DNA of 64,000 bases from Escherichia phage ECP2301. The translations under genes and the position numbers were made by a program. The DNA lies in sequence record OR880646.1. The stretch is one strand, 5' to 3'. Of this stretch, positions 8,005 through 53,400 are shown one piece after another. Each line of letters opens with the position of its first letter. The first letter of the stretch is position 1. The notes beneath the pieces are model-generated. The model made no database searches, was not told the DNA's origin, and saw nothing but the letters and a program-made list of their open reading frames with translations.

Positions 8005-8025
8005 GGGACCGAAAGGTCCCTTTTT
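8005..8025. terminator. bidirectional terminator between gene 24 and rnlB
   Basis: GGGACC-GAAA-GGTCCC hairpin flanked by A-run and T-run. Confidence 0.8.
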
Positions 8026-9611: not shown

Positions 9612-11030
9612 TTATGGATAGGTATAGATGATACCAGTTTCTAAAGCAGTTTTATGAATGATGTATCCATTACGTGATTCTTGAACATCAACTTCTGGAT
9701 AGTCTTTCATCATCTTCTGAAGGGTGTAACGATGCAGGTAGTATTTACTATCTGGATCTTCAGTTTTCCAATCTTTACCTTCTTCGGTCATTTTTTGGAT
9801 TTCATCCATAACCCACCAGCCGCACCAGATATAAGCCGAAGTACGATGTGGAAGAGGATGAACATAAGGCAATTCACCTTCTGGTTCTGGAGCAACTTTA
9901 TCAGTTACCTGAACTTGACCTTCTGCTGTGATAGTTTTGCTATCATAATCAGTAGCAGTAACAGTTGCAGTAACTTCAATAGTTTGACTTCCAATAGATG
10001 ATGTATCAACGGTGTATACATTAGTTGACCCTTCTACTGGAGAAGAATCTTTCTTCCATGAATATTCAATTTGAGCTTCTTCTGGAGCATCAGTGACATT
10101 AGCAGTAAATGTAGCCGAAGCATCTTGCTGAACGTTAATAGAAGGAGGAGTCAATGTAACCTGTGGATTCATTGTCTTCTTATTAACTGTTAATGATACT
10201 TCATTAGAAGTAACTTCCTTTTCATTGTAATTTTCTGCAGTTACTTGAGCTACACACTTAACTGTTTTAGCTCCAACTGTGGTAGGAGTATAGTTAAATG
10301 TAGTAGTAGTTTCTCCATCGACCAGAGAACCGTCAACATACCACTGATACGTAGCAGACGCTCCTGGTGGCTGTGAAGCCAAGGCAGCAGTAAATTGAAC
10401 TGGGGTTCCAATTACCCCGGCAGCAGGATTAGCAGGAGTTACGGCTAACGTAGTTGTCTGTGTCTTCTTATTAACTGTTAATGACACTTCATTAGAAGTA
10501 ACTTCCTTTGCATCATAATCTGCCGCAGTTACTTGAGCTACGCACTTAATTGTTTTAACTCCGCTTGTGTCAGGAGTGTAATTGAATGTAGCGTCAGTTG
10601 CTTCGCTTACAGGAGAACCGTCAACGTGCCATTGATACGTAGCAGATGCACCTGATGGCTGTGAAGCTAAGGCAGCGGTAAATTCAATTGGAGTTCCAAT
10701 CACTCCAGCATCAGGGCTACCAGGAGTTACAGCTAAAGTAGTTGTCTGTGTCTTATTTTGAACTGTGATAGTTGTACTAATTTCTGCTGTTTCAGGTTCA
10801 GATTCTGCAACTTGATTGGTTGCAACGACTTTAATAGTCTTTTGACCGGCAGGTCCTTTTAGTACATAACTAAAAGTTGCTGACGTTTCTTCCTGCGGAG
10901 CGTCGTCTACAGTCCAAGCATATGTAATAGGTCCATCTCCAGTTTGACCACTGGGTGTAGCAGTAAACTGCTGAGTCTGATCTATAACTCCAGTAGGTGT
11001 TTTAGGAGTTATATCAACTGTAAAAGTCAT
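9612..11030 (-). CDS. hoc: highly immunogenic outer capsid protein Hoc, with four Ig-like repeats
   Basis: 472 aa; internal tandem ~96 aa repeats (ATYQW[HY]VDGS...KCVAQVTA...EVTSNEVSLTVNKKT); position between rnlB cluster and inh. Confidence 0.85.
   Translation of the reverse strand: MTFTVDITPKTPTGVIDQTQQFTATPSGQTGDGPITYAWTVDDAPQEETSATFSYVLKGPAGQKTIKVVATNQVAESEPETAEISTTITVQNKTQTTTLAVTPGSPDAGVIGTPIEFTAALASQPSGASATYQWHVDGSPVSEATDATFNYTPDTSGVKTIKCVAQVTAADYDAKEVTSNEVSLTVNKKTQTTTLAVTPANPAAGVIGTPVQFTAALASQPPGASATYQWYVDGSLVDGETTTTFNYTPTTVGAKTVKCVAQVTAENYNEKEVTSNEVSLTVNKKTMNPQVTLTPPSINVQQDASATFTANVTDAPEEAQIEYSWKKDSSPVEGSTNVYTVDTSSIGSQTIEVTATVTATDYDSKTITAEGQVQVTDKVAPEPEGELPYVHPLPHRTSAYIWCGWWVMDEIQKMTEEGKDWKTEDPDSKYYLHRYTLQKMMKDYPEVDVQESRNGYIIHKTALETGIIYTYP
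10173..10748 (-). repeat. two tandem 288 bp coding repeats inside hoc (Ig-like domain duplication)
   Basis: units 10173-10460 and 10461-10748 visibly similar at nucleotide level (~80% by eye). Confidence 0.8.
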
Positions 11031-21809: not shown

Positions 21810-21813
21810 CAAT

Positions 21814-21844
21814 GGGGACCGAAAGGTCCCCATATTTTTATTTA
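21814..21844. terminator. bidirectional terminator after gene 54
   Basis: GGGGACC-GAAA-GGTCCCC hairpin then T-rich run. Confidence 0.8.
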
Positions 21845-22128
21845 CGGAATGAAATGAAAGCAGCAACTGAAGCAACTAAACTGTCTTCAATATAAACTTC
21901 AATTTTTACCGGAGCTTCTGACTCAAATTTGCCTGTTACTACACCTTGGAAAATGCTTTCAGTCTGTTCTGGCTTTGAAAAATTTTCAGAAGGAAAAATT
22001 CCGAACTTTTTATCTGTTCCAAAAATTTTGATAAATTCATCATAAACTGCTTCATTAAAAGCGTTATCAGCAGGAATAACGCCTTCAACTACAAGTTCTT
22101 GACCTAAAAAGCGTAAAGAAGATTTCAT
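21838..22128 (-). CDS. hypothetical protein downstream of alt genes
   Basis: 96 aa ORF with GAGGA SD, preceded by early-promoter cassette. Confidence 0.6.
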   Translation of the reverse strand: MKSSLRFLGQELVVEGVIPADNAFNEAVYDEFIKIFGTDKKFGIFPSENFSKPEQTESIFQGVVTGKFESEAPVKIEVYIEDSLVASVAAFISFRK

Positions 22129-22135
22129 TTTGTGT

Positions 22136-22189
22136 TCCTCATGTTATGTCAGTAAGATTACTATAACACAACACGAGGGACTTGTAAAC
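22136..22189 (-). repeat. 54 bp exact repeat, copy A (early promoter + leader + SD)
   Basis: identical to 38114-38167. Confidence 0.9.
22160..22189 (-). promoter_or_regulatory. early promoter (GTTTAC -35, TGtTATAGT extended -10)
   Basis: inside 54 bp repeat copy A, upstream of 96 aa ORF. Confidence 0.6.
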
Positions 22190-24246
22190 TACATCTTGAA
22201 CTTTTTAGACATTCCGTTGATGTTAACCAAAGAAGCCAAGATTTGAGAAACTTCGTTTTCCTCTTCTTTTGATTCTTCTACAAGGAATTGATTAAACCCA
22301 GCCATTGGACGAACTTCGCCAGTTTCCATTAGATGATCGCCATCATATACCGATTCTTCTAATTGTTCAGAAGGAGGAACGATTGTGCCTTCGATTAGAT
22401 ACTTGTTATAAGCAGTTTCTTTCATCATGTACGTGCTCACTTTATTAATCTTCAGCAAAATTCCACGCGGTAGAATAACTTCAGCTTCTGATGGAAATCC
22501 CGATAAATGACCTGGAACGATAACTTTGATTCGCTCAGCCCCTTTAATTACCATACCTACGCTAGTTTCAGCATCTTCATTCGCATAAGCAGAATGACTG
22601 CCCATATGCATTAAATCTTCAGCATCAACAGAACCTTCTCCTTCACCAGAAAATACTGCGCCGGAATCATCTAGAGCCATATAGTTTTTACCATGCTCAC
22701 CGAAGATATTTGGTTTAAGCGATGTTGATACGAAGTTCTTGAAATAGAACATTTTATTTTCAATATTATGGCGTAAAGTTTTAAAAGTAACTTCTTGTCC
22801 ACGATAAAGCGTAGTTCCTGGAGGAAGAACTGAACCTTTGGCAAAGGCAGAATCCAGCGTCTCGATGTGTTTAATAGCTCGTTCCATATATTCTTCACGG
22901 GTAGAATCTGGTTTACCCAAGAGGAACGAGTTCATTTCAACATATGAATCTGCACAATAATCTTCAATTACATCAGACTCAGCCTGAGTCAGTCCTTTTG
23001 GAGTTACTTCGGTGCTTGAGTATTCATATGCCTGAGCAGCAGATTCATTAATCAATTTATAAATGCCATTCATGACAAATTGAATAATAGCTACCTTTTC
23101 GTCTGGCGTAGCTTTAGAACCTTTAACTAAATCATTGATAATTTTCTTAATAACATCAAAGCTATTAGAAATATTAATGTCAGCGAGATCGCTCAAAATT
23201 TTATCGGTTTTATAATCAAAAAATTCTTTATTCTTTAAATATTCTTGAGAACCTTGATGTGTTATATCGCTCTGCAGTCTGATAGACGGATCACGTAAAC
23301 GCGCATGGGCCAATGCAATATGATTTCGGAAGCTTTCTAGTTCATAATCGTTAGATTTAAAACGAGAAGCACTTCTCATACCACCGATAGCTCCTTTGCC
23401 GAAGTTTGAACCAATCTGAATAACACCAGAGTTCATTGGTCCTTCTGCTTTATATACCGGAACTTTAGATTCAAACTCTTGATATTTCTTGGCAGCGAAG
23501 CTATCACCCTGTAGCGAAGCATCGACAGTAGAATATTGAGCTTGTGCTGCTAATCGACGACTAATTTTAGTTTTCTGAATAACAGCTTGATCCGTGCGCT
23601 TATCATTTTCTAAAGCAATAGAAGCAGCAACAGCAACAGCTTTAGGAACAGCATTACCTGTTTTAACATCTACATAAACATCACCAACCTTTGATTCAAC
23701 TTTTGTGAATAACTCAGTTGAAATAGGAGGTACACCTGGAATGTCTTCTAAATTGGCATTTTTACGGTAAACCATAATATATGCATACTTTTTATCATAA
23801 TCCCAGATTTCCTTTAAAAGAACATATCGACCTGCTCCTTTAGTACGTACTAAACGGTCAGCAATAACTTGCATTTGACGAGCTGCGCCATTTGTTTTAC
23901 TTTTTAGTACGCGGAATAAGCATGCATCAATTTTATACTGTTTCATTGTTTGAAGAGCAGTATCAAAAACGGCATTAATGACACCAATTGGATTTCCACC
24001 CAAGTTTTTAAGTTTAACTAATGATAGTTTCTCATTAACACCTATCATTACGATATGCATCATTTTATCGCCTGGCTTAACGTTTTTATTTGTATCACCG
24101 CCAGAGGTGTATGTACAAAATCTAAATCCAGGAAGCACGCTTTCTTCACCGGCTTGAATAGCAAAAATTTGAGGTATTTTATGCTTAGGATTTAAGTTAA
24201 CAACCGGCGCCGAAGCGCCGTCAAATAATTCTGTAATAAGTTCCAT
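22189..24246 (-). CDS. Alt-family ADP-ribosyltransferase paralogue (copy 1)
   Basis: 685 aa; N-terminus MELITELFDGAS...; C-terminal R (LYRGQ), STS (FVSTSL), ExE (EAEVILPRG) motifs. Confidence 0.8.
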   Translation of the reverse strand: MELITELFDGASAPVVNLNPKHKIPQIFAIQAGEESVLPGFRFCTYTSGGDTNKNVKPGDKMMHIVMIGVNEKLSLVKLKNLGGNPIGVINAVFDTALQTMKQYKIDACLFRVLKSKTNGAARQMQVIADRLVRTKGAGRYVLLKEIWDYDKKYAYIMVYRKNANLEDIPGVPPISTELFTKVESKVGDVYVDVKTGNAVPKAVAVAASIALENDKRTDQAVIQKTKISRRLAAQAQYSTVDASLQGDSFAAKKYQEFESKVPVYKAEGPMNSGVIQIGSNFGKGAIGGMRSASRFKSNDYELESFRNHIALAHARLRDPSIRLQSDITHQGSQEYLKNKEFFDYKTDKILSDLADINISNSFDVIKKIINDLVKGSKATPDEKVAIIQFVMNGIYKLINESAAQAYEYSSTEVTPKGLTQAESDVIEDYCADSYVEMNSFLLGKPDSTREEYMERAIKHIETLDSAFAKGSVLPPGTTLYRGQEVTFKTLRHNIENKMFYFKNFVSTSLKPNIFGEHGKNYMALDDSGAVFSGEGEGSVDAEDLMHMGSHSAYANEDAETSVGMVIKGAERIKVIVPGHLSGFPSEAEVILPRGILLKINKVSTYMMKETAYNKYLIEGTIVPPSEQLEESVYDGDHLMETGEVRPMAGFNQFLVEESKEEENEVSQILASLVNINGMSKKFKM

Positions 24247-24249
24247 GAT

Positions 24250-26346
24250 TTATCCTTGAACGAACTTGTAAGGCATGTTTGTAATATCTATGCAAGACGC
24301 AATAATTCTAAGAGATGATTCTACTTTTTGTTTAACATTTGATGAAACAAATGATGCAAAATCAACTCTGTCTTCTATTTCAATATCACCTGTCATTGCA
24401 ACTACTTCACCAGTTTCCATTAGACGGTCACCGTCATAAATTACTGATTCGGTGAGTTCTTCCGTAGTCATAACTTCAGCTTGAATGAGTTTTGTATTAT
24501 TAGATGTTGTTCCATCATTATTAGAAGCATCAGTTATTTTATTAACTTTGACCATCAATCCGCGTGGTAGAATAACTTCAGCTTCTGTTGCTATTCCGAG
24601 ACTTCCTGGATATACAACATTAACTTTATGAGCTCCATCAATTGCCCATCCTATTTGAACTTTAACGTATTCAGGATTTTCTTTATACGCTCTTATTTCG
24701 TTTGGATTAATAGTTATTCCTTCTTCATTTTTATCAACTGTCAATTCATTACGAGCTTCTGGTTCTAAAAGACCAATACCAGCATGTGTAATTCCAAAAC
24801 GTCCAAAAATGATAGGAGTTAAAGAAGTAGATACAAAATTTCTGAAATAGAACACTTTATTTTTAACTAGTGCTTCGTATATAGGAGCAGTCATACTTTG
24901 AGCACGATAAACTGTAATGCCTTCTGGTATACGGTCACCATTTTCAAAAGCTGAATCTAAGTTATTTATAGCAGATTCAATTTCTTTTTCACTCATTACA
25001 TCATATCGTTCTGGATTGTAGCGTCCTAAAAGAAGATTATTGATGTCAGTATATCCTGAACCACAATACTCTCTAATGCCGCGCTTTTGTGATGGAGTAT
25101 ATTTAGAACCATCGCGAGCAATAGTAATATCAATCATTGGACCTGCACCAATTCCAGAAAAACTATAAATCATTCGTTTGAGGAATTTAGTTTTTGCTGC
25201 GTTCCAGGAATTTTTAGTTATTTCTTCCCAGACTTCATCTGGCTGTCCTTTACGTGTTTTATTATGTTTATCAAGCCAATTATCTTTATATTCTTCAAAG
25301 AGTTGATTAACGGCTGCTGCGTATTTCTCTAAACATTTTATTGAAGTAGTTGGTTCATTTTTAATCGCATTAAGAATTACATCTTTTATCTTTTCAGAAA
25401 CTTCATTAACCTCACTTTTTGAAAAGAATTTATAATCATAGTGAAGTTCATCTGCAGTTCCTTCGGCAATGATTTTTGCTGCCTTAGTTTTAGAAGCTAT
25501 TGAATTAATTCCAAGTTTCATTTCTTCTGCTTCGGGAATTAAAGGAGCGGTAGCAGGTTTATTGAAATTAGCTGCGGTAGATTCATACTTCTGGAATAAT
25601 TCACTTTCAAATCTAGAAGATTCTAATGATTGACTTTGTGCAATTGCTCTACGGGAAATTTTAACTTTAACGATTACAGCTTGATCAGAACGTTTATCGT
25701 TTTCTTGCGCAATAGATGCAGCAATTGCCTCATTTTTAGTTACTTGAGCTCCGGTATCTTTATTGATATAAACATCACCGACCTTCGATTCAACTTTAGT
25801 AAAGAGCTCGGTACTAATTTCAGGAACTCCTGGAATGTCTTCTAATGATACATTTTTGCGATGTATAAGAATATATGCGTACTTTTTATCGTAATCCCAG
25901 AGTTCCTTAAGAAGGACGTATCTGCCACCTGAACGACTACGGATAAGTCTATCAGCAATAAGTTGAATTTGTCGAGCTTGACCAGCAGTTTTAGACTTAA
26001 GAATACGGAGCATACAGGCATCAATTTTATACTGACGCATTGTTTGCATCGCAACAGTAAAAACTGAATTGATGTAATTAATTGGGCTTGGACCGAGACC
26101 TTTTAATTTAGCGATTGAACCTTTAGCAGTTAATGTAAAAGGAACAATATGCATCATTTTATCGCCCATCTTTAAATCGCGATTAGTATCACCTCCAGAT
26201 GTATAGGTACATAAACGAAAGCCTGGTTGTTCAATTGCGTCATCAACATGAACTGAAAAAATTTGCGGTATTTTCTTCTTTGGATTTAAGTTTGTAATCG
26301 GAAGAGTAGTATCTTCGTCAAATAATTCTGTAATGAGTTCCATCAT
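24250..26346 (-). CDS. alt: Alt ADP-ribosyltransferase (copy 2, closer to my recollection of T4 Alt)
   Basis: 698 aa; N-terminus MMELITELFDEDTTLPITNL...; R (VYRAQ), STS (FVSTSL), ExE (EAEVILPRG); late promoter upstream. Confidence 0.85.
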   Translation of the reverse strand: MMELITELFDEDTTLPITNLNPKKKIPQIFSVHVDDAIEQPGFRLCTYTSGGDTNRDLKMGDKMMHIVPFTLTAKGSIAKLKGLGPSPINYINSVFTVAMQTMRQYKIDACMLRILKSKTAGQARQIQLIADRLIRSRSGGRYVLLKELWDYDKKYAYILIHRKNVSLEDIPGVPEISTELFTKVESKVGDVYINKDTGAQVTKNEAIAASIAQENDKRSDQAVIVKVKISRRAIAQSQSLESSRFESELFQKYESTAANFNKPATAPLIPEAEEMKLGINSIASKTKAAKIIAEGTADELHYDYKFFSKSEVNEVSEKIKDVILNAIKNEPTTSIKCLEKYAAAVNQLFEEYKDNWLDKHNKTRKGQPDEVWEEITKNSWNAAKTKFLKRMIYSFSGIGAGPMIDITIARDGSKYTPSQKRGIREYCGSGYTDINNLLLGRYNPERYDVMSEKEIESAINNLDSAFENGDRIPEGITVYRAQSMTAPIYEALVKNKVFYFRNFVSTSLTPIIFGRFGITHAGIGLLEPEARNELTVDKNEEGITINPNEIRAYKENPEYVKVQIGWAIDGAHKVNVVYPGSLGIATEAEVILPRGLMVKVNKITDASNNDGTTSNNTKLIQAEVMTTEELTESVIYDGDRLMETGEVVAMTGDIEIEDRVDFASFVSSNVKQKVESSLRIIASCIDITNMPYKFVQG

Positions 26347-26397: not shown

Positions 26398-26584
26398 AAT
26401 AATCTATTGGTAAGAGAGTACGGTATATTTCAAACTTTGGACCTTTTTCATAGGCATCAAATGTTTCTGTGAATTTATTATAAGCATATGCATCTATAAA
26501 TTCAATCATAATTTGTGATACAGAAGTAGAAACATCTCCACCTTCTTTTTGAGCCACGACAATTGTTTCTAAGTAAGCTTTCAT
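26396..26584 (-). CDS. hypothetical protein
   Basis: 62 aa ORF, ATGA overlap with ligase stop. Confidence 0.5.
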   Translation of the reverse strand: MKAYLETIVVAQKEGGDVSTSVSQIMIEFIDAYAYNKFTETFDAYEKGPKFEIYRTLLPIDY

Positions 26585-28044
26585 AGACCAGTTACCTCAT
26601 GAAAATCACCAAATACATCCTCGAATGTATTAGCTTTAGTTTTATCTTCACGTAAACGAATCGCAATCGGAAGAAATAATTTAACGTAATCAGTGCGGCC
26701 ATCAGATTTTAACCAACCATTGCATTCACATTCTAGAATTTTTCCAATATAATAATTTTGGTTTTCCATAATGCGAGTACGGTCAAGTTCATGCGATTTT
26801 ACACCGGCTTTATCTTTTAAGCCTGAACCAGCATTTACTTTAATTTTTCCACACTCTGATTCAAGAATAAATCCACCTGCTTTAGTAGGGTCTTTACGGT
26901 GAGGATAAATTCCTACAATTTTTAAATCAACATCAATTACTTCTTTAAATTTATAAAGATTTTTTGAACGAGCATTTTCCCACAATCCATCGGTATTTTT
27001 GAGAATAATACCTTCAAGACCTTGGTCAATATATTTTTTATAAATTACCTTAGCTTCATCTAGGTTATTTACTACCTGGTTTTCAATTAAAATTACTTTA
27101 TCATATCCTGATGTCATTTGTTCTAGTTTAGAAAAACGTACATCATACTTCAAACGAAACGCCGGAAGACCGTATATTTCTACCAACGGGACATAATCCC
27201 AGACCTGAAACTTCATGCATTGAGCTTCTTTTTCAGAAATGGTTCCTTTTAAGGATTTATTGGCGATTCCATTAGAAGTAGTACGAGATTCCGCTACTTC
27301 GGCGAATTCTTTAGCTTTACTAATTTCAGGATAAGCATCAAAAAGAAAATCTAGGCCTTCTGGTTCCTTTTTAACTTGCTCATGGTATACCAATTCGCCA
27401 TCGATTAACACACCTTCTGGATGAATCTGGCGGGCTTCAGCAGTCATTTTGATTAACTCTTCCTTAAGAAGATCTAATCCTAGATATTCATTACCAGCTC
27501 GTGATAAAAGACGAACATCATCTAATTCATCACCTCGGACTTCAGCAAAACACCGAGCTCCATCTGCTTTTAACTGTGCAAAGGCTGGAAACTTGATATT
27601 CTTATTAATGCCCTTTTCATCATAAGAACTTGCCAGCATTTGAGGTTGTTCAGGAATTAAACCTGGCCAAACTTTATTTGCAATAGATACTGAAGCACCG
27701 CATTCAAGATCTCGCATCATAACTCGACGCAAAACTTCAACATCATCCTTTTTACCATCGGTGATATATCCAGTTAATTCCTCAATTGCCGCATTTCCAG
27801 TCAATTTCCGAGTAGCTAACGTGAATTCAATGAAGTCAAGCATATCAGTAATGGTCAGCATTCCAAAACTCTGGGTAGCAATACCAGGCTTAGGCCATTT
27901 CTTGATATAATACTGTAACCCACGAGAATAAGTCAGACGATATACTCGTTTAAGCAATTCATTATCTTTATTCTTTTCAAGAATTGCTTGCTTCTGCTTA
28001 GTTGATCCAATAGATGCTATTTCATTCAGAATTTTAAGAATCAT
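26581..28044 (-). CDS. 30: ATP-dependent DNA ligase
   Basis: 487 aa; adenylation motif KADGAR (AQLKADGARCFAEV). Confidence 0.95.
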   Translation of the reverse strand: MILKILNEIASIGSTKQKQAILEKNKDNELLKRVYRLTYSRGLQYYIKKWPKPGIATQSFGMLTITDMLDFIEFTLATRKLTGNAAIEELTGYITDGKKDDVEVLRRVMMRDLECGASVSIANKVWPGLIPEQPQMLASSYDEKGINKNIKFPAFAQLKADGARCFAEVRGDELDDVRLLSRAGNEYLGLDLLKEELIKMTAEARQIHPEGVLIDGELVYHEQVKKEPEGLDFLFDAYPEISKAKEFAEVAESRTTSNGIANKSLKGTISEKEAQCMKFQVWDYVPLVEIYGLPAFRLKYDVRFSKLEQMTSGYDKVILIENQVVNNLDEAKVIYKKYIDQGLEGIILKNTDGLWENARSKNLYKFKEVIDVDLKIVGIYPHRKDPTKAGGFILESECGKIKVNAGSGLKDKAGVKSHELDRTRIMENQNYYIGKILECECNGWLKSDGRTDYVKLFLPIAIRLREDKTKANTFEDVFGDFHEVTGL

Positions 28045-30325: not shown

Positions 30326-30691
30326 TTAAATATCAAATTCGTTAAGAACTACATCAAAGATTGCTTCAAGATGCTCAGGTTTAGCTCTGTTACTCAGAAT
30401 ATGACGGATCCAAGTTTTAACCAGAAGCTTGCGATTAACGCCATTCCAGCAAGGATGAGTCCCTAAATCGCGTTGACGAAAATCATCATCCAGGGCGATT
30501 TTGAAGTTGGAACCTTCCATTGTGATTGAAACCGTGATGCCATTTTCAAATCGCATATAAACGTAGTTAGGAGTCATATACTGTTCAATTTCGCATACTG
30601 ATCCATTTTGATGTTTCCAAAGGCAAATAGTATCAATAGAACCTGCAATACCATTAGAAACATATTTACGTTCAAAGTTGATGTAGTTCAT
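30326..30691 (-). CDS. hypothetical protein
   Basis: 121 aa ORF with its own early promoter. Confidence 0.6.
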   Translation of the reverse strand: MNYINFERKYVSNGIAGSIDTICLWKHQNGSVCEIEQYMTPNYVYMRFENGITVSITMEGSNFKIALDDDFRQRDLGTHPCWNGVNRKLLVKTWIRHILSNRAKPEHLEAIFDVVLNEFDI

Positions 30692-30728
30692 TTTTATTCT
30701 CCGAGATGTTTAATTGCGGTACATGTAT

Positions 30729-30757
30729 ATAATATCATATCCTGTACCAAAGTAAAC
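30729..30757 (-). promoter_or_regulatory. early promoter (GTTTAC, 17 nt, TATTAT)
   Basis: upstream of 121 aa ORF. Confidence 0.5.
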
Positions 30758-30759
30758 AA

Positions 30760-31092
30760 TTATTTTACTACTTTCCAGTGCTGCATGTCAAGTTTACCAA
30801 CTTTTTTCATCTTCTCAATTAAGCGTTCTGCGCGTTGGCGAGCTGTAACATAATGCCATTCACCTAATTCATTTTGTTCAATTTTTCCAACGATTACTGT
30901 ATTCAATTCATAAATCCAACCAGTAAAGAAATTATGAACTTGAATTGTAAAGGTGAAATCTGTTCCCATACCTTCTGTTGTTTCTACTTCAATAATATCA
31001 CCTTCAACTGCCATTAAGAACCACATAGTTTCATCATATTTACCATTGAAGCATTTAGTTTTAACTGCAGCGTTCAGATTAATCGTTTTCAT
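30760..31092 (-). CDS. hypothetical protein
   Basis: 110 aa ORF with its own early promoter and AAGGAGAA SD. Confidence 0.6.
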   Translation of the reverse strand: MKTINLNAAVKTKCFNGKYDETMWFLMAVEGDIIEVETTEGMGTDFTFTIQVHNFFTGWIYELNTVIVGKIEQNELGEWHYVTARQRAERLIEKMKKVGKLDMQHWKVVK

Positions 31093-31119
31093 TTTATTCT
31101 CCTTTGTTTGTGTAAGATA

Positions 31120-31149
31120 ATACTATCACAAAGGAACCATACTGTAAAC
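31120..31149 (-). promoter_or_regulatory. early promoter (GTTTAC, 18 nt, TAGTAT)
   Basis: upstream of 110 aa ORF, just downstream of a terminator. Confidence 0.5.
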
Positions 31150-31179
31150 AACTTTGTGCAATCTTTGGAAAATAAAAAA

Positions 31180-31197
31180 GGACTCCCGAAGGAGTCC
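31180..31197 (-). terminator. rho-independent terminator downstream of 72 aa ORF
   Basis: GGACTCC-TTCG-GGAGTCC on - strand followed by T6. Confidence 0.7.
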
Positions 31198-31202
31198 TCA
31201 AC

Positions 31203-31421
31203 TTATGCTTTCTGCTTACCAAAACGAGAAGCATCATCTCGAAGAACCGCACGTGCTCGGCGCATGATCTTCTCAACAGTTTGATTGATACGAGAGTTCG
31301 ACCCACGCTTGTAGCCAGCGCGTTTAGAATCACCAACTTTCTTTTCAACTGCTTTCTTTGCTTTAGCTTGTTTTGCCATTATAAATTCTCTTTTAAATGA
31401 AAATGCAGGACTTATTGGCAT
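31203..31421 (-). CDS. hypothetical small basic protein
   Basis: 72 aa from ATG 31421 (no SD) or 58 aa from ATG 31379; Lys/Arg-rich; terminator downstream. Confidence 0.5.
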   Translation of the reverse strand: MPISPAFSFKREFIMAKQAKAKKAVEKKVGDSKRAGYKRGSNSRINQTVEKIMRRARAVLRDDASRFGKQKA

Positions 31422-32173: not shown

Positions 32174-32509
32174 TCACTTATAAAGACACGGAATAGCTTT
32201 ATAGTGACAGGTAACGAATTTTTGTTTAATTTCTTTTGGCTGCTTAAGACCCAGAGCTACAAAAGGATGCGGAACGTTTCGAATTTGACCAACTGGAAGA
32301 GAAGTCAAATCACCAACTTCACAGAAACCTTCAGGAACATCAGGACCAACAGAGTGAACTACACACAGTTCAGGAACTTCACCTTGAACACGTTTACCGA
32401 TAATAAGTCCTGATTCTGTAACTTCTTCATCACCGGCTTGTGCAGGTTCAGAAACTAAAATAACATATTCACCGACAGCACGAATTGGTAGCTGTTGTAC
32501 TTCAGACAT
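32174..32509 (-). CDS. 31: GroES-like co-chaperonin for capsid protein folding
   Basis: 111 aa, position and length as T4 gp31. Confidence 0.9.
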
Positions 32510-34260: not shown

Positions 34261-34781
34261 GTTGATCCCAGCTCCTTACTTTCAACGTTTTTAACTAATT
34301 TGACAGAAACTAATTCGGCATCTTGTGTAATCATTACCGGGCCTTCTTTATACTCTTCAAGATATTCTAGAGCTTTCTTTTTAGCTTCTTCCTTCGTATC
34401 AGTTTGAGCATAGATATAAAACATGCAACCAGTAATACCTACTACTTTCCACTTAATTTCTTTATCAGTTTTAATTTCAAATTTACTGACAGAATCATCT
34501 TTTTGAACTTCTTCGAAAAAAGAATATTCTAGCATATAAGCAATTGAAAATAACGGGCTAACTTTATAGGATTCGCCCATTACATCAACAGCTTTATACC
34601 AACAGTCATCAATTTCGCGTTTAATGCTAATAACATTTTTCGCAGGATCTATTTTTACTTTAAATGAATTTTCCCCAATAAATTGAGCAATTCGTTTATT
34701 AGCCCCACAAGTTTCATTAAAAATATCTTTATATCCAGCTTTAAAGCGATAAACCTTATCTTCTTCAAACCATTCGCTCAT
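34254..34781 (-). CDS. hypothetical protein (cd-pseT cluster)
   Basis: 175 aa ORF. Confidence 0.6.
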   Translation of the reverse strand: MSEWFEEDKVYRFKAGYKDIFNETCGANKRIAQFIGENSFKVKIDPAKNVISIKREIDDCWYKAVDVMGESYKVSPLFSIAYMLEYSFFEEVQKDDSVSKFEIKTDKEIKWKVVGITGCMFYIYAQTDTKEEAKKKALEYLEEYKEGPVMITQDAELVSVKLVKNVESKELGSTC

Positions 34782-34812
34782 TTCAATTTCCTCATTTGTT
34801 TTTGGTAGAGCT

Positions 34813-34842
34813 ATAATATCACAACTCTACCGTAAAGTAAAC
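34813..34842 (-). promoter_or_regulatory. early promoter (GTTTAC, 18 nt, TATTAT)
   Basis: between cd-cluster ORFs; flanked by inverted repeat GGTAGAG...CTCTACC. Confidence 0.5.
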
Positions 34843-37262: not shown

Positions 37263-37612
37263 TTAGAAAGGTCCTGGATGTCTTCTGCGAACTTGTTGAA
37301 GGAGTTGTTGATTTGTTTTTCAACCAATCCTGGCTTATGAGCCACCACATCCGCCTTCTTTGCGTCTTTGCGCAGTTTTTCATTTTCACGCTCAATAGCA
37401 GCAATTGCCTCACGATTTTTATTATTCATCGCATCAATATAATTATACTGAATTCGCAAATTATTTAATGCTAAAGCGTTTTCATTGGCCGTTTTTGTAA
37501 TTTCTACAACAGACGTTTCTAATCTTTCAATTTTATTTTTTAAAATTAAAGAAGTTCCGCCCAATGCAATTACAATTAATAGCAAACCTGTTGTCGTATT
37601 ACTTAATTGCAT
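37259..37612 (-). CDS. pseT.3: inner-membrane spanin (i-spanin)
   Basis: 117 aa; N-terminal TM helix (GLLLIVIALGGTSLIL) followed by coiled-coil-like periplasmic domain. Confidence 0.7.
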   Translation of the reverse strand: MQLSNTTTGLLLIVIALGGTSLILKNKIERLETSVVEITKTANENALALNNLRIQYNYIDAMNNKNREAIAAIERENEKLRKDAKKADVVAHKPGLVEKQINNSFNKFAEDIQDLSK

Positions 37613-38109
37613 AAAGTTTTAATAACCTCTATAATATCGTCTTGAGAAAGACCGTTAATTAAAATATGATGTTCAGCCGGAGATTTAGAAATTTTAAAGC
37701 ATGCCTCAACATCTTCTGCCATATCCGATGCGCTACGATTTGGATTACTAATTCCAAGACGATGTTTTCCCGTCAAAGGATTAACGATGATATAGCATTT
37801 ACAGTTATTAATATGAACATTAGGTTGAGTCTGATTAATGAATACATCACAATCATATTTCGCAAGCTGATTTTCTAAAAAGACTTTCATCTCCTCAACT
37901 GCATCAGGAAGCATATCACGGGCTTGCTCAAGACGACGATTTCGATATTCTTTAATGGTCGTTTTCCGCTTGACTTGTTTAGCTAAATCTTTCTTAAGAT
38001 CGGTGATATATCCAACTCGACGATTTCCTTTAAATACAGAAATCCCATCTGTAGTATCACCGTATGCTTCAACGACCATCTCAGTAGTAATAAGCTGCAA
38101 ATCCATCAT
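37603..38109 (-). CDS. alc: Alc, inhibitor of host transcription (positional assignment)
   Basis: 168 aa ORF between rnlA and the spanins, with early promoter and GAGGA SD. Confidence 0.7.
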   Translation of the reverse strand: MMDLQLITTEMVVEAYGDTTDGISVFKGNRRVGYITDLKKDLAKQVKRKTTIKEYRNRRLEQARDMLPDAVEEMKVFLENQLAKYDCDVFINQTQPNVHINNCKCYIIVNPLTGKHRLGISNPNRSASDMAEDVEACFKISKSPAEHHILINGLSQDDIIEVIKTLCN

Positions 38110-38113
38110 AAAG

Positions 38114-38167
38114 TCCTCATGTTATGTCAGTAAGATTACTATAACACAACACGAGGGACTTGTAAAC
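38114..38167 (-). repeat. 54 bp exact repeat, copy B (early promoter + leader + SD)
   Basis: identical to 22136-22189. Confidence 0.9.
38138..38167 (-). promoter_or_regulatory. early promoter (GTTTAC -35, TGtTATAGT extended -10) for alc
   Basis: inside 54 bp repeat copy B. Confidence 0.6.
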
Positions 38168-38170
38168 AGC

Positions 38171-39757
<1,587 letters not shown>

Positions 39758-46087: not shown

Positions 46088-46330
46088 TCAAACAGACTTT
46101 TTCACAATTTTCCAATCAGCTTTAAACTGTTCAACATCAGAATGGTAAATCCAAAACCCTGCGCTTTCTCCATCCTCATAAAGAGGGCATCCATCGCATT
46201 CATCTTCCCATCCCATATCACGCAAAAGACGTTCAGCTTTTTCAACAAGTTCAGAATTTTTACCGATGATATTAAAATACCATTTACCTCTAACTTCTGA
46301 ATCTTTAATGCTCTGACGTTGTAATCTCAT
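46088..46330 (-). CDS. hypothetical protein
   Basis: 80 aa ORF with early promoter and AAGGAGAA SD. Confidence 0.55.
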   Translation of the reverse strand: MRLQRQSIKDSEVRGKWYFNIIGKNSELVEKAERLLRDMGWEDECDGCPLYEDGESAGFWIYHSDVEQFKADWKIVKKSV

Positions 46331-46355
46331 TTTATTCTCCTTAGTTGATAGGGTA

Positions 46356-46385
46356 ATAGTATCACACTACTACCCTTCTGTAAAC
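46356..46385 (-). promoter_or_regulatory. early promoter (GTTTAC, 18 nt, TACTAT)
   Basis: upstream of 80 aa ORF. Confidence 0.5.
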
Positions 46386-46809: not shown

Positions 46810-47037
46810 TTATTGTTCAATCAGTCCCATGTAAAATTCTGCGTCTTCAGAATCCATACCATCACAATATTCATTAGCCATAAAACGAGTGAGGTCTTCA
46901 AGAGGACCTTCAATAACGATTTGAATACTCCAAAACTTAGAATCTTGTACGCTTGTGATACTAAGTTCAGGATAACGATTACGAATAATTTCTTCAATAT
47001 ATTCAAAATCAACGATGTCAATATCAACTTTAGCCAT
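46810..47037 (-). CDS. hypothetical acidic protein
   Basis: 75 aa from ATG 47037 (GAGGA SD 7 nt upstream); ORF-track start 47073 is TTG; early promoter upstream. Confidence 0.5.
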
Positions 47038-47080
47038 ATTATTTTCCTCTTTAATCATCAGCAGTATTGCCAATAGTTGT

Positions 47081-47110
47081 ATAGTACCACAGTCCTTGTG
47101 GTATGTAAAC
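47081..47110 (-). promoter_or_regulatory. early promoter (GTTTAC, 18 nt, TGgTACTAT)
   Basis: downstream of gene 32 terminator, upstream of 75 aa ORF. Confidence 0.5.
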
Positions 47111-50456: not shown

Positions 50457-53400
50457 ATGGCCGAGATTAAAAGAAAGTTCAGAGCAGAAGATGGTCTGGA
50501 CGCAGGTGGCGATAAAATAATCAACGTAGCTTTAGCTGATCGTGCCGTAGGAACTGACGGTGTTAACGTTGATTACCTAATTCAAGAAAACACAGTTCAA
50601 CAATACGATCCAACTCGTGGATATTTAAAAGATTTTGTAATCATTTATGATAACCGCTTTTGGGCTGCTATAAATGATATTCCAAAACCGGCAGGAGCTT
50701 TTAATAGCGGACGCTGGAGAGCATTACGTACCGATGCTAACTGGATTACAGTCTCATCTGGTTCATATCAATTAAAATCTGGTGAAGCTATTTCGGTTAA
50801 CACTGCAGCTGGTAATGATATTACATTTACTTTACCATCTACTCCAATTGACGGTGATACTATCGTTCTCCAAGACATTGGAGGAAAACCTGGAGTTAAC
50901 CAAGTTTTAATTGTAGCTCCAGTGCAAAGTATTGTAAACTTCAGAGGCGAGCAAGTACGTTCAGTACTAATGACTCATCCAAAGTCACAGTTAGTTTTAA
51001 TTTTTAGTAATCGTCTGTGGCAAATGTATGTAGCTGATTATAGTAGAGAAGCTGTAGTTGTAACACCAGCGAATACTTATCAAGCACAATCCAACGACTT
51101 TATCGTACGTAGATTTACTTCTGCTGCACCGATAAATATTAAACTTCCGAGATTTGCTAATCACGGCGATATTATTAATTTCGTCGATTTGGATAAATTA
51201 AACCCTCTTTATCATACAATTGTTACGACATATGATGAAACGACATCAGTACAAGAAGATGGAACTCATTCCATTGAAGGCCGTACATCTATTGACGGTT
51301 TCTTGATGTTTGATGATAATGAGAAATTATGGAGATTGTTTGACGGGGACAGTAAAGCACGTTTACGCATCATAACGACTAATTCAAATATTCGTCCAAA
51401 CGAAGAAGTTATGGTATTTGGTGCGAATAATGGAACAACTCAAACGATTGAGCTTCAGCTTCCAACTAATATTTCTGTTGGTGATACTGTTAAAATTTCC
51501 ATGAATTACATGAGAAAAGGACAAACAGTTAAAATCAAAGCTGCCGGTGAAGATAAAATTGCTTCTTCAGTTCAATTGCTGCAATTCCCAAAACGTTCAG
51601 AATATCCACCTGAAGCTGAATGGGTGACTGTCCAAGAATTAGTTTTTAACGGTGAAACTAATTATGTTCCAGTTTTACAACTTGCTTATATAGAAGATTC
51701 TGATGGAAAATACTGGGTTGTACAACAAAACGTTCCAACTGTAGAAAGAGTTGATTCTTTAAATGATTCTACTAGAGCAAGATTAGGCGTGATTGCTTTA
51801 GCTACACAAGCGCAAGCTAATGTCGATTTAGAAAATTCTCCACAAAAAGAATTAGCAATTACTCCAGAAACATTAGCTAACCGTACTGCTACAGAAACTC
51901 GTAGAGGTATCGCAAGAATAGCAACTACTGCTCAAGTGAATCAGAACACCACATTCTCTTTTGCTGATGATATTATCATCACTCCTAAAAAGCTGAATGA
52001 AAGAACTGCTACAGAAACTCGTAGAGGTGTTGCTGAAATTGCTACGCAACAGGAAACTAATGCAGGTACTGATGATACTACAATCATCACTCCTAAAAAG
52101 CTTCAAGCTCGTCAGGGTTCTGAATCATTATCTGGTATTGTAACCTTTGTATCTACCGCAGGAGCTACTCCAGCTTCTAGTCGTGAATTAAATGGTACAA
52201 ACGTTTATAATAAAAACACTAATAATTTAGTTGTTTCGCCTAAAGCTCTGGATCAGTATAAAGCTACTCCAACGCAACAAGGCGCAGTAATTTTAGCAGT
52301 TGAAAGTGAAGTAATTGCTGGACAGAGTCAAGAAGGATGGGCAAATGCGGTTGTAACGCCAGAAACGTTACATAAAAAGACATCAACTGATGGAAGAATT
52401 GGTTTAATTGAAATTGCTACGCAAAGTGAAGTTAATACAGGAACTGATTATACTCGTGCAGTCACTCCTAAAACTTTAAATGACCGTAAAGCAACTGAAA
52501 GTTTAAGTGGTATAGCTGAAATTGCTACGCAAGTTGAATTCGACGCAGGCGTCGACGATACTCGTATCTCTACACCATTAAAAATTAAAACTAGATTTAA
52601 TAGTACTGATCGTACTTCTGTTGTTGCTCTATCTGGATTAGTTGAATCAGGAACTCTCTGGGACCATTATACCCTTAATATTCTTGAAGCAAATGAGACA
52701 CAGCGTGGTACACTTCGTGTGGCTACACAAGTTGAAGCTGCTGCAGGAACATTAGATAATGTTTTAATAACTCCTAAAAAGCTTTTAGGTACTAAATCTA
52801 CCGAATCGCAAGAAGGTGTTATTAAAGTTGCAACGCAGTCTGAAACTGTGGCTGGAACGTCAGCAAATACTGCTGTATCTCCAAAAAATTTAAAATGGAT
52901 TGTGCAGAGTGAACCTACTTGGGCAGCTACTACTGCGATAAGAGGCTTTGTTAAAACTTCATCTGGTTCAATTACATTCGTTGGTAATGATACAGCTGGT
53001 TCTACGCAGGACTTAGAGCTATACGAGAAAAATAGCTATGCAGTATCGCCATATGAATTAAACCGTGTATTAGCAAATTATTTGCCATTAAAAGCAAAAG
53101 CTGCTGATACAAATTTATTGGATGGTCTAGATTCATCTCAATTCATTCGTAGGGATATTGCACAGACGGTTAATGGTTCACTAACCTTAACCCAACAAAC
53201 GAATCTGAGTGCCCCTCTTGTATCATCTAGTACTGCTACGTTTGGCGGATCAGTTTCGGCAAACAGCACATTAACTATTTCTAATACTGGAACGGCAACT
53301 CGTCTGATTTTTGAGAAAGGACCTCAAACTGGAACTAACCCAGTACAGACGATGACTATCAGAGTTTGGGGAAATCAGTTTGGTGGCGGTTCAGATACAA

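Follow-up and report, generated by a model that had tools for sequence, protein, structure and literature searches.

A near-identical 54-bp early-promoter cassette before alc and alt.-3 in Tequatrovirus phages, with a predicted hairpin over its Shine-Dalgarno site

Introduction

Why would two unrelated phage genes 16 kb apart share every base from the −35 element to the ribosome-binding site? The question is raised by a 54-bp element in Escherichia phage ECP2301 (sequence record OR880646.1), of which a stretch of 64,000 nucleotides, hereafter the window, was analyzed. The element, TCCTCATGTTATGTCAGTAAGATTACTATAACACAACACGAGGGACTTGTAAAC on the plus strand, occurs exactly at two places in the window, 22136-22189 (copy A, before alt.-3) and 38114-38167 (copy B, before alc). 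Read on the minus strand, which is the direction of the genes, both copies are GTTTACAAGTCCCTCGTGTTGTGTTATAGTAATCTTACTGACATAACATGAGGA. The explanation that we regard as probable, though well short of secure, is that the 54-mer forms a self-contained expression cassette, that a hairpin predicted within it would act as a translational gate on read-through RNA, and that its two copies are kept alike by common constraint together with gene conversion.

Two copies of a promoter-to-Shine-Dalgarno cassette

No third match to the 54-mer was found in the window with up to three mismatches allowed, and none of 100 dinucleotide-preserving shuffles matched it. The flanks of the two copies diverge immediately on either side, and the repeated unit corresponds exactly to the interval from the −35 element through the Shine-Dalgarno site: on the minus strand, identity begins at the G of GTTTAC and ends at the final A of GAGGA. 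In copy A this first G is at the same time the final base of the stop codon (TAG) that closes the upstream alt paralog, and in copy B it lies 3 nt past the rnlA stop codon. The distance from GAGGA to the start codon is 7 nt for alt.-3 and either 4 or 7 nt for alc, which begins with ATG-ATG.

Promoter scanning identified TTTACA, a 17-nt spacer, TATAGT, and the TG of an extended −10 element in both copies. Each copy thus has the −35 and TAnnnT −10 elements, 16-18 nt apart and often with TGn, that characterize a T4-type early (sigma-70) promoter, and the T4 early promoters (Pe) have been described as a UP/−35/TGn/−10 class (Hinton, 2010; PMC2988021). The elements of the two cassettes are as follows.

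22136-22189, minus strand: cassette copy A, −35 to Shine-Dalgarno, 54 nt, before alt.-3; exact repeat, T4 ortholog between alt.-2 and alt.-3
22183-22189, minus strand: copy A −35 element, G-TTTACA (promoter scan)
22160-22168, minus strand: copy A extended −10 element, TGT-TATAGT (promoter scan)
22153, minus strand: copy A predicted start, A37 of the cassette, 7 nt past the −10 element (sigma-70 position rule)
22136-22140, minus strand: copy A Shine-Dalgarno site GAGGA, 7 nt before the alt.-3 ATG
38114-38167, minus strand: cassette copy B, −35 to Shine-Dalgarno, 54 nt, before alc; exact repeat, T4 ortholog between rnlA and alc
38161-38167, minus strand: copy B −35 element, G-TTTACA (promoter scan)
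38138-38146, minus strand: copy B extended −10 element, TGT-TATAGT (promoter scan)
38131, minus strand: copy B predicted start, A37 of the cassette (position rule only)
38114-38118, minus strand: copy B Shine-Dalgarno site GAGGA, before the two ATG codons of alc

Among the other promoter-like sequences of the window, the one most like the cassette, an early-type promoter at 34789-34842, is only 61% identical to it. When the regions from −35 to ATG were compared, the alc/alt.-3 pair scored 0.90 and the next best pairs in the window 0.72-0.75. These results bear out part of an earlier sequence-only reading of this DNA, which had reported the exact 54-bp repeat with abruptly diverging flanks (confirmed here by the match search and the shuffles), had placed a −35/−10/leader/Shine-Dalgarno unit before alc and a 96-amino acid open reading frame (ORF) downstream of the alt pair (supported by the promoter scan and by the early classes of the T4 genes described below), and had stated that other early promoters share only the core motifs. 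The gene names that it used are correct according to domain matches. The possibility that the 54-bp identity reflects a generic conserved promoter was checked and did not hold, as other early-type promoters reached only the 61% and 0.72-0.75 levels given above. The cassette thus appears to be a specific pair and yet, as described below, a genus-wide one. The 54-mer itself was not found in the literature searched, which did not extend to the older T4 promoter papers, and a 14-mer matched one unrelated plant paper; a 54-bp repeat in a phage as heavily studied as T4 may have been noted earlier.

A predicted hairpin over the promoter and the Shine-Dalgarno site

The sequence-only reading did not mention any hairpin, which is an addition of the present analysis. 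The sense strand of the cassette folds with a predicted minimum free energy (MFE) of −22.0 kcal/mol (z = −5.8), and none of 200 shuffles was as stable. The predicted hairpin has 18 bp, joining cassette positions 12-25 with 40-53 and 28-31 with 36-39 around the loop AUCU. Its 5' arm is formed by the promoter spacer and the −10 region and its 3' arm by the leader plus GAGG from the Shine-Dalgarno site, of which bases G50-G53 are paired. The −10 element occupies cassette positions 25-30, and the predicted start A37 falls just beyond the apical loop. When folded with their native flanks, the copies have an MFE of −25.3 and −27.3 kcal/mol.

22137-22178, minus strand: copy A hairpin, cassette positions 12-53; MFE −22.0 kcal/mol, z = −5.8
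38115-38156, minus strand: copy B hairpin, with the stem extended (AAGUCC...GGACUU); MFE −27.3 kcal/mol in an 81-nt context, z = −5.0

The antisense strand folds much more weakly (−12.8 kcal/mol, z = −2.3) because three of the hairpin pairs are G.U. In these models, the strand asymmetry points to a structure of the sense RNA and not to a DNA palindrome. The predicted cost of freeing UGAGGA in read-through RNA is 13.0 kcal/mol at alt.-3 and 7.5 kcal/mol at alc, compared with 1.7 and 1.6 kcal/mol, respectively, in RNA that begins at A37.

The hairpin is retained in all 20 distinct haplotypes of the cassette (28-31 genomes), with energies from −16.1 to −23.9 kcal/mol and with the Shine-Dalgarno site paired in each. 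One pair shows a compensatory change among the haplotypes (C15-G50 to U-A), and other changes preserve pairing through wobble (16-49, G.U to A-U; 23-42, G-C to G.U; 25-40, U.G to U-A). An additional 11-54 pair was acquired by two different routes, and a few rare singleton variants disrupt pairing. The case for the hairpin was built on its stability, its strand asymmetry, and its retention in all variants, and not on covariation.

Two other identities were considered for the hairpin and rejected. It is not an intrinsic terminator, as neither copy is followed by a U-run and the terminator scan called none; the same scan found no terminator-like site between the proximal alt paralog and alt.-3 or between rnlA and alc. 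A known RNA family was likewise rejected, as Rfam gave no match at either copy with E <= 1.

Other early-type promoters of the window were also tested, and hairpins were predicted at 34779-34841, 46328-46384, 31090-31148, 47035-47109, and 30689-30756, all on the minus strand. These hairpins have the 5' arm in the −35/−10 spacer and the 3' arm in or just past the −10 element; four of the seven promoters tested gave a significant value (z = −2.5 to −4.2), and at 31090-31148 the AAGGAG Shine-Dalgarno site is paired as well. A promoter lying inside a hairpin may, on these predictions, be a general trait of such early promoters that extends beyond the alc/alt.-3 pair.

Expression classes and the proposed translational gate

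The genes on the two sides of each cassette are listed below.

21838-22128, minus strand: alt.-3, 96 amino acids, DUF5498 / phrog_1739 (E = 1e-64; domain match and T4 comparison), served by copy A
22189-24246, minus strand: proximal Alt paralog, 685 amino acids, upstream of copy A; its read-through RNA would carry the complete copy A hairpin
37603-38109, minus strand: alc, 168 amino acids, inhibitor of host transcription, PF17527 (E = 4e-91; domain match and T4 comparison), served by copy B
38171-39295, minus strand: rnlA (gene 63, RNA ligase 1), upstream of copy B, with the 5' limit (39295) set from the 1125-nt length of T4 rnlA; its read-through RNA would carry the complete copy B hairpin

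In the time-resolved transcriptome and proteome of T4 (PMC9697503, supplements), alc and alt.-3 are both classified as early RNA and early protein. Their neighbors differ: alt is classed as middle RNA and late protein, alt.-1 and alt.-2 as middle RNA, rnlA as early RNA and late protein, and denA as middle RNA and late protein. The T4 expression class therefore changes at each cassette, with alc and alt.-3 in the early RNA and early protein classes and their upstream neighbors in later ones, which fits an early promoter at both sites. From sequence and position, the cassette promoter would be active in ECP2301 as well, with transcription probably starting at A37.

We propose the following mechanism. 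The 54-mer would be a self-contained cassette comprising a strong sigma-70 early promoter (GTTTACA, a 17-nt spacer, and TG-n-TATAGT), a leader of ~17 nt, and the GAGGA site. On RNA reading through from rnlA or alt, the spacer/−10 segment would pair with the leader and the Shine-Dalgarno site and block ribosome loading. Polymerase starting at the embedded promoter would begin inside the hairpin, at about A37, and the resulting RNA would have only the 3' arm, leaving the ribosome site open. Synthesis of Alc and Alt.-3 would thereby be restricted, in essence, to the immediate-early transcripts of the two genes, and middle or late read-through of rnlA or alt would not contribute. The predicted block on read-through RNA fits the early-protein class of Alc and Alt.-3 next to late-protein neighbors, and the untranslated read-through message of alc or alt.-3 could in addition face Rho-dependent polarity. 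The near-identity of the copies would be kept by identical functional constraint plus occasional non-crossover exchange (gene conversion), while crossovers would delete or duplicate about 16 kb including genes 30 and 31, and such products were not recovered.

Distribution of the cassette pair

The window belongs to a Tequatrovirus (T4-like phage), and both loci match about 500 Tequatrovirus genomes at 95-99%. A blastn search with the 54-mer returned 997 places in 499 Tequatrovirus records, T4 included, with at least 92.6% identity to the window copy. Each record has two copies save one, the single-copy PQ799574.1 (Escherichia phage vB_EcoM_Maryam, 113,330 bp), whose length suggests an incomplete genome rather than a deletion. 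In the annotated T4 record, copy B lies between rnlA and alc and copy A upstream of alt.-3, and the T4 pair differs by a single mismatch. Because the pair is present across these 499 records, including T4, it appears to predate the Tequatrovirus radiation as sampled.

The same cassette pair was not found in the other genera compared. VR7, VR25, and VR26 (Gaprivervirus) have a related alt.-3 promoter and a different arrangement at alc. In RB69 (Mosigvirus), the regions upstream of alc and alt.-3 are 71% alike and share TTTACAAnCAC and ATCAACAACAyGAGGA, which is only slightly above the 63-67% likeness of other early-type promoter pairs in that phage. Since the VR7-like arrangement at alc differs and the RB69 regions are near the Pe background without sequestration, both the near-identity and the predicted gate appear specific to Tequatrovirus.

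In VR26/VR7-like Gaprivervirus contigs (L007, 263-427, and L008, 350-514), an extra short ORF was observed just upstream of the full alc gene. It resembles the first ~55 residues of Alc (51% identity) and comes with a separate promoter-like sequence, ahead of which stands a G/C-rich stem (AAGGGGTGTACAAGCCCCTT), an arrangement more like a classical promoter-early stem-loop (PeSL; see below).

Evolution of the two copies

Both copies were taken from 28 genomes, comprising the window, T4, 19 further GenBank phages, four IMG/VR contigs, and three metagenome contigs, and three further single alt.-3 copies were added; pattern scans of IMG/VR and the JGI metagenomes contributed only a few genomes. 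The two copies of a genome show 0-5 differences over the 54 positions (mean 2.11), and the 100% identity in the window is one end of this range. Identical copies were found in five genomes on four haplotype backgrounds (the window; Sf22 and one IMG/VR contig; ELT1; RB68).

No fixed difference separates the alc copies from the alt.-3 copies in these genomes. The divergence between paralogs (2.1-2.4) equals the diversity among orthologs (1.5 at alc and 2.5 at alt.-3). Polymorphism affects eight sites at alc and 13 at alt.-3, with seven sites variable at both loci and six of these having the same two alleles. An overlap of this size has a chance probability of 7e-5 with all 54 sites allowed to vary and of 0.02 with 25. 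Same-genome copies are slightly more alike than permuted pairs (2.11 vs 2.36, P = 0.027). Some rare haplotypes recur at the other locus: at alt.-3 the A16/G32 haplotype occurs only in RB68, whose alc copy is identical, and T42 on an A32 background is found at alc in KFS-EC3 and at alt.-3 in the metagenome phage OIWM01000017. The diversity of orthologous cassettes (0.03-0.05 per site) is no lower than that of the flanking coding DNA (0.006-0.04).

These patterns suggest concerted evolution, in which occasional short-tract gene conversion would act atop shared constraint. Gene conversion had been offered in the sequence-only reading as one source of the perfect identity, and it agrees with the genus-level data (zero fixed differences, seven shared sites, P = 0.027), for which the evidence is statistical only. 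In the window, both copies carry the A32 allele, which among the sampled alc copies is shared only with the closest relative, KFS-EC3, and which twelve genomes have at alt.-3. Conversion of a single base in this lineage, with alt.-3 as donor and alc as recipient, is a possible and reasonable account of the perfect identity observed here. The flanks show haplotype blocks with heavy mosaicism among phages, and there inter-locus conversion and between-phage recombination look alike. The minimal homology reported for T4 recombination is close to 54 bp.

Evidence against the proposed explanation and alternatives to it

Several observations speak against the proposed gate and gene conversion. In the short alt.-3 transcript the Shine-Dalgarno site is itself weakly paired in the prediction, opening for 1.7 kcal/mol. 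The covariation test on 14 haplotypes was not significant, with 98% of cells paired and 83 of 500 shuffles as good, and only one hairpin pair changes on both sides within this shallow genus. A genome-wide map of T4 5' ends was not found in the literature searched, Miller et al. (2003) being outside its scope. The equivalent promoters of RB69 (Mosigvirus) and the VR7-like phages (Gaprivervirus) do not sequester the Shine-Dalgarno site, and therefore the switch is not required for the expression of alc or alt.-3. As for conversion, the overlap of polymorphic sites loses significance at ~20 free sites (P = 0.11), site-by-site allele associations between the copies within genomes were not significant, and the sampled genomes are related and not independent.

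Part of this evidence also favors the most serious alternative, namely that an ancient duplication has stayed near-identical purely through strong and identical purifying selection, the shared variants being parallel mutations with no gene conversion involved. Beyond the overlap at ~20 free sites and the lack of allele associations, this alternative is helped by the nature of the shared variable sites, most of which are neutral or pair-preserving (27 in the bulge, 32 and 33 in the loop, and 16 G>A, which turns G.U into A-U). On the other hand, cassette orthologs are as diverse as the flanking coding DNA, so the variable sites are not frozen; no fixed difference has arisen although the loci have been separate since before the genus radiation; and rare multi-site haplotypes recur at the other locus (RB68; KFS-EC3 and OIWM01000017), with same-genome likeness at P = 0.027. 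On balance we find selection without conversion doubtful as the whole explanation.

The direct orientation of the repeats raises the question of crossovers between them, which the sequence-only reading had expected to delete or duplicate the intervening 16 kb. This is correct in principle, and by T4 collinearity the interval includes gene 30 (DNA ligase, 26581-28044) and gene 31 (co-chaperonin, 32174-32509). Genes 30 and 31 are essential in T4, and a 16-kb duplication would exceed the terminal redundancy permitted by headful packaging. We searched for crossover products with two chimeric junction queries (the rnlA end, cassette, and alt.-3 start; the alt end, cassette, and alc start), and none of the 499 genomes had one place covering at least 80% of either query; PQ799574.1 likewise had none. 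If crossovers are lethal, only non-crossover exchange between the copies would be heritable.

The absence of junctions also bears on a second alternative, that the cassette is a PeSL whose stem-loop terminates upstream transcription and whose main evolutionary role lies in recombination, as a site where modules are shuffled, mini-circles excised, and genes exchanged. In T4-type phages, PeSLs have been described as repeated cassettes that recombine with one another, giving rise to indels and mini-circles (Arbiol et al., 2010, PMC2839356; Comeau et al., 2014, PMC4122927). Their stem-loop immediately precedes the promoter and serves as a terminator, and they cluster in hyperplastic regions beside ORFans and indels (PMC2839356; PMC4122927). 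Here, too, an early promoter with a stem-loop is repeated and followed by a Shine-Dalgarno site and a start codon; the T4/PST consensus TTTACW-N17-TAYWAT (PMC4122927) loosely fits TTTACA-N17-TATAGT; and phages differ in the gene content of the alt region that lies upstream of copy A. However, a terminator stem upstream of the promoter is absent, as the upstream gene reaches to the −35 element or to within 3 nt of it, and the predicted stem covers the spacer, −10 element, leader, and Shine-Dalgarno site, has no U-run, and is not called as a terminator. Nor was an association with indels, ORFans, or recombination products observed: no crossover product was present in any of the 499 genomes, every genome examined is collinear at alc, without indels at the cassette, and the cassette is not an endpoint of the variable alt content beside copy A. 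A PeSL role is accordingly considered unlikely.

A third alternative, to which we also give little credence, assigns the hairpin to the upstream genes, as a 3' stability element or decay barrier for the alt and rnlA mRNAs, or takes the inverted repeat for a DNA operator that shuts both promoters. The hairpin begins 11-14 nt past the alt and rnlA stop codons, both upstream proteins accumulate late, so that a protected 3' end could help, and similar hairpins straddle the −10 element of at least four other early-type promoters of the window without covering the Shine-Dalgarno site. A stability element, however, would not have to extend over the Shine-Dalgarno site of the following gene, nor would two loci have to carry identical copies of it. 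An operator should be palindromic on both strands, whereas the G.U pairs make the sense RNA the stronger (−22.0 vs −12.8 kcal/mol), and no candidate binding protein is known.

Finally, the recent phage-specific copying proposed in the sequence-only reading is extremely improbable and was rejected: the copies are 100% identical over 54 bp here and both carry the less common A32 (at alc only in the window and KFS-EC3), but the cassette is present in all 499 Tequatrovirus records, in pairs save in one partial genome, at >= 92.6% identity, with 0-5 differences between copies elsewhere and one mismatch in T4.

Genomic neighborhood of the two copies

The two large ORFs upstream of copy A encode Alt ADP-ribosyltransferase paralogs. 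These tandem genes, 22189-24246 and 24250-26346 on the minus strand, encode 685 and 698 amino acids, and their DNA contains segments that are 72-94% alike at a spacing of ~2094 nt. The alt content beside copy A varies among close relatives: two paralogs are present here, the proximal one is reduced to alt.-1/alt.-2 in T4, and PST has one alt. Alt.-3 is a small protein without known function; in T4 the gene is nonessential, and mutants with C-terminal extensions escape CmdTAC (PMC11618068). At 21812-21833, where alt.-3 and gene 54 converge, a perfect 9-bp stem rich in G/C (ATGGGGACCGAAAGGTCCCCAT) resembles a bidirectional terminator, and a related stem, GGGACCGAAAGGTCCC, was observed at 8005-8020.

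Other repeats were noted elsewhere in the window. The biggest repeat family consists of two tandem 288-nt direct repeats, 83% identical, at 10173-10748. The region 51858-52783 has several dispersed direct repeats of 33-68 nt (66-85% identity), which look like repeated peptide motifs of a structural, tail-fibre-like gene. A weak Rfam match to the Rhizobiales small RNA Atu_C8 at 31164-31247 on the minus strand scored 31.4 bits, under the gathering score of 50 (E = 0.006). The matched segment includes a terminator-like hairpin (31178-31199), to whose stem-loop the similarity is in all likelihood accidental.

Implications

If the proposed gate works, it would explain the confinement of Alc and Alt.-3 to immediate-early synthesis despite their position downstream of later-transcribed units. 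Alc aborts transcription of cytosine DNA. A broader and more tentative idea, which we hold as a possibility only, is that an early promoter within a hairpin is a general T4-type device and that alc/alt.-3 is its extreme case, duplicated, kept by conversion, and co-regulating host-takeover genes. If so, the hairpin would silence or insulate the downstream gene on read-through RNA, perhaps together with polarity, and limit expression to the early-promoter window. Such a device would be the mirror image of the late-gene e/soc mechanism described below, and would hint at a role for Alt.-3 together with Alc during the first minute of infection.

The pair also offers a clean natural case for measuring gene conversion, in which two 54-bp repeats are separated by 16 kb in a phage with a high rate of recombination. 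In practical terms, the cassette would be a compact, strong, and self-insulating expression unit, and its two copies are a potential rearrangement site in engineered or therapeutic T4-like phages. No major view of phage biology is changed by these findings.

Comparison with known systems

The cassette promoters resemble the T4 Pe promoters in their GTTTAC-type −35 element, TG-extended −10 element, A-rich upstream region, and early-class downstream genes. They differ in that ordinary Pe promoters share the consensus only (61-75% identity in the window), whereas this pair shares every base from the −35 element to the Shine-Dalgarno site. With the PeSLs, the cassette has in common a repeated composite of an early sigma-70-like promoter, a stem-loop, a Shine-Dalgarno site, and a start codon, which provides short homology for recombination between distant sites. 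In contrast to PeSLs, its stem overlaps the −10 element and the Shine-Dalgarno site without a U-tract, its identity of 93-100% over 54 bp goes far beyond what a motif family shows, the element is limited to two copies, and crossover products were not seen. As in the concerted evolution of dispersed repeats, the copies have no fixed differences, share polymorphisms, and form identical pairs on different backgrounds; the tract is, however, only 54 bp, and the evidence is statistical.

The closest likeness is to the T4 genes e, soc, 49, and I-TevI, whose ribosome site is sequestered on upstream transcripts and whose promoter lies in the DNA of the 5' strand of the helix and gives translatable RNA (reviewed by Uzan and Miller, 2010; PMC3014915). 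In the cassette, as there, the Shine-Dalgarno site is predicted to lie in a stable RNA helix on transcripts from upstream, and the promoter lies within the 5'-strand DNA, so that transcripts from the probable start would lack that strand. In those genes the promoter is late (TATAAATA) and the hairpin prevents early expression, whereas the cassette promoter is of the sigma-70 early type and the predicted effect is reversed; moreover, the cassette exists as two near-identical copies at unrelated genes. No late promoter TATAAATA was found in the cassette. Because it lacks this sequence and has an early promoter instead, we file the cassette as a putative variant, and not a member, of the class of promoter-in-hairpin gates. 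If the gate works as proposed, this classic T4 post-transcriptional mechanism would be extended from late to early promoters.

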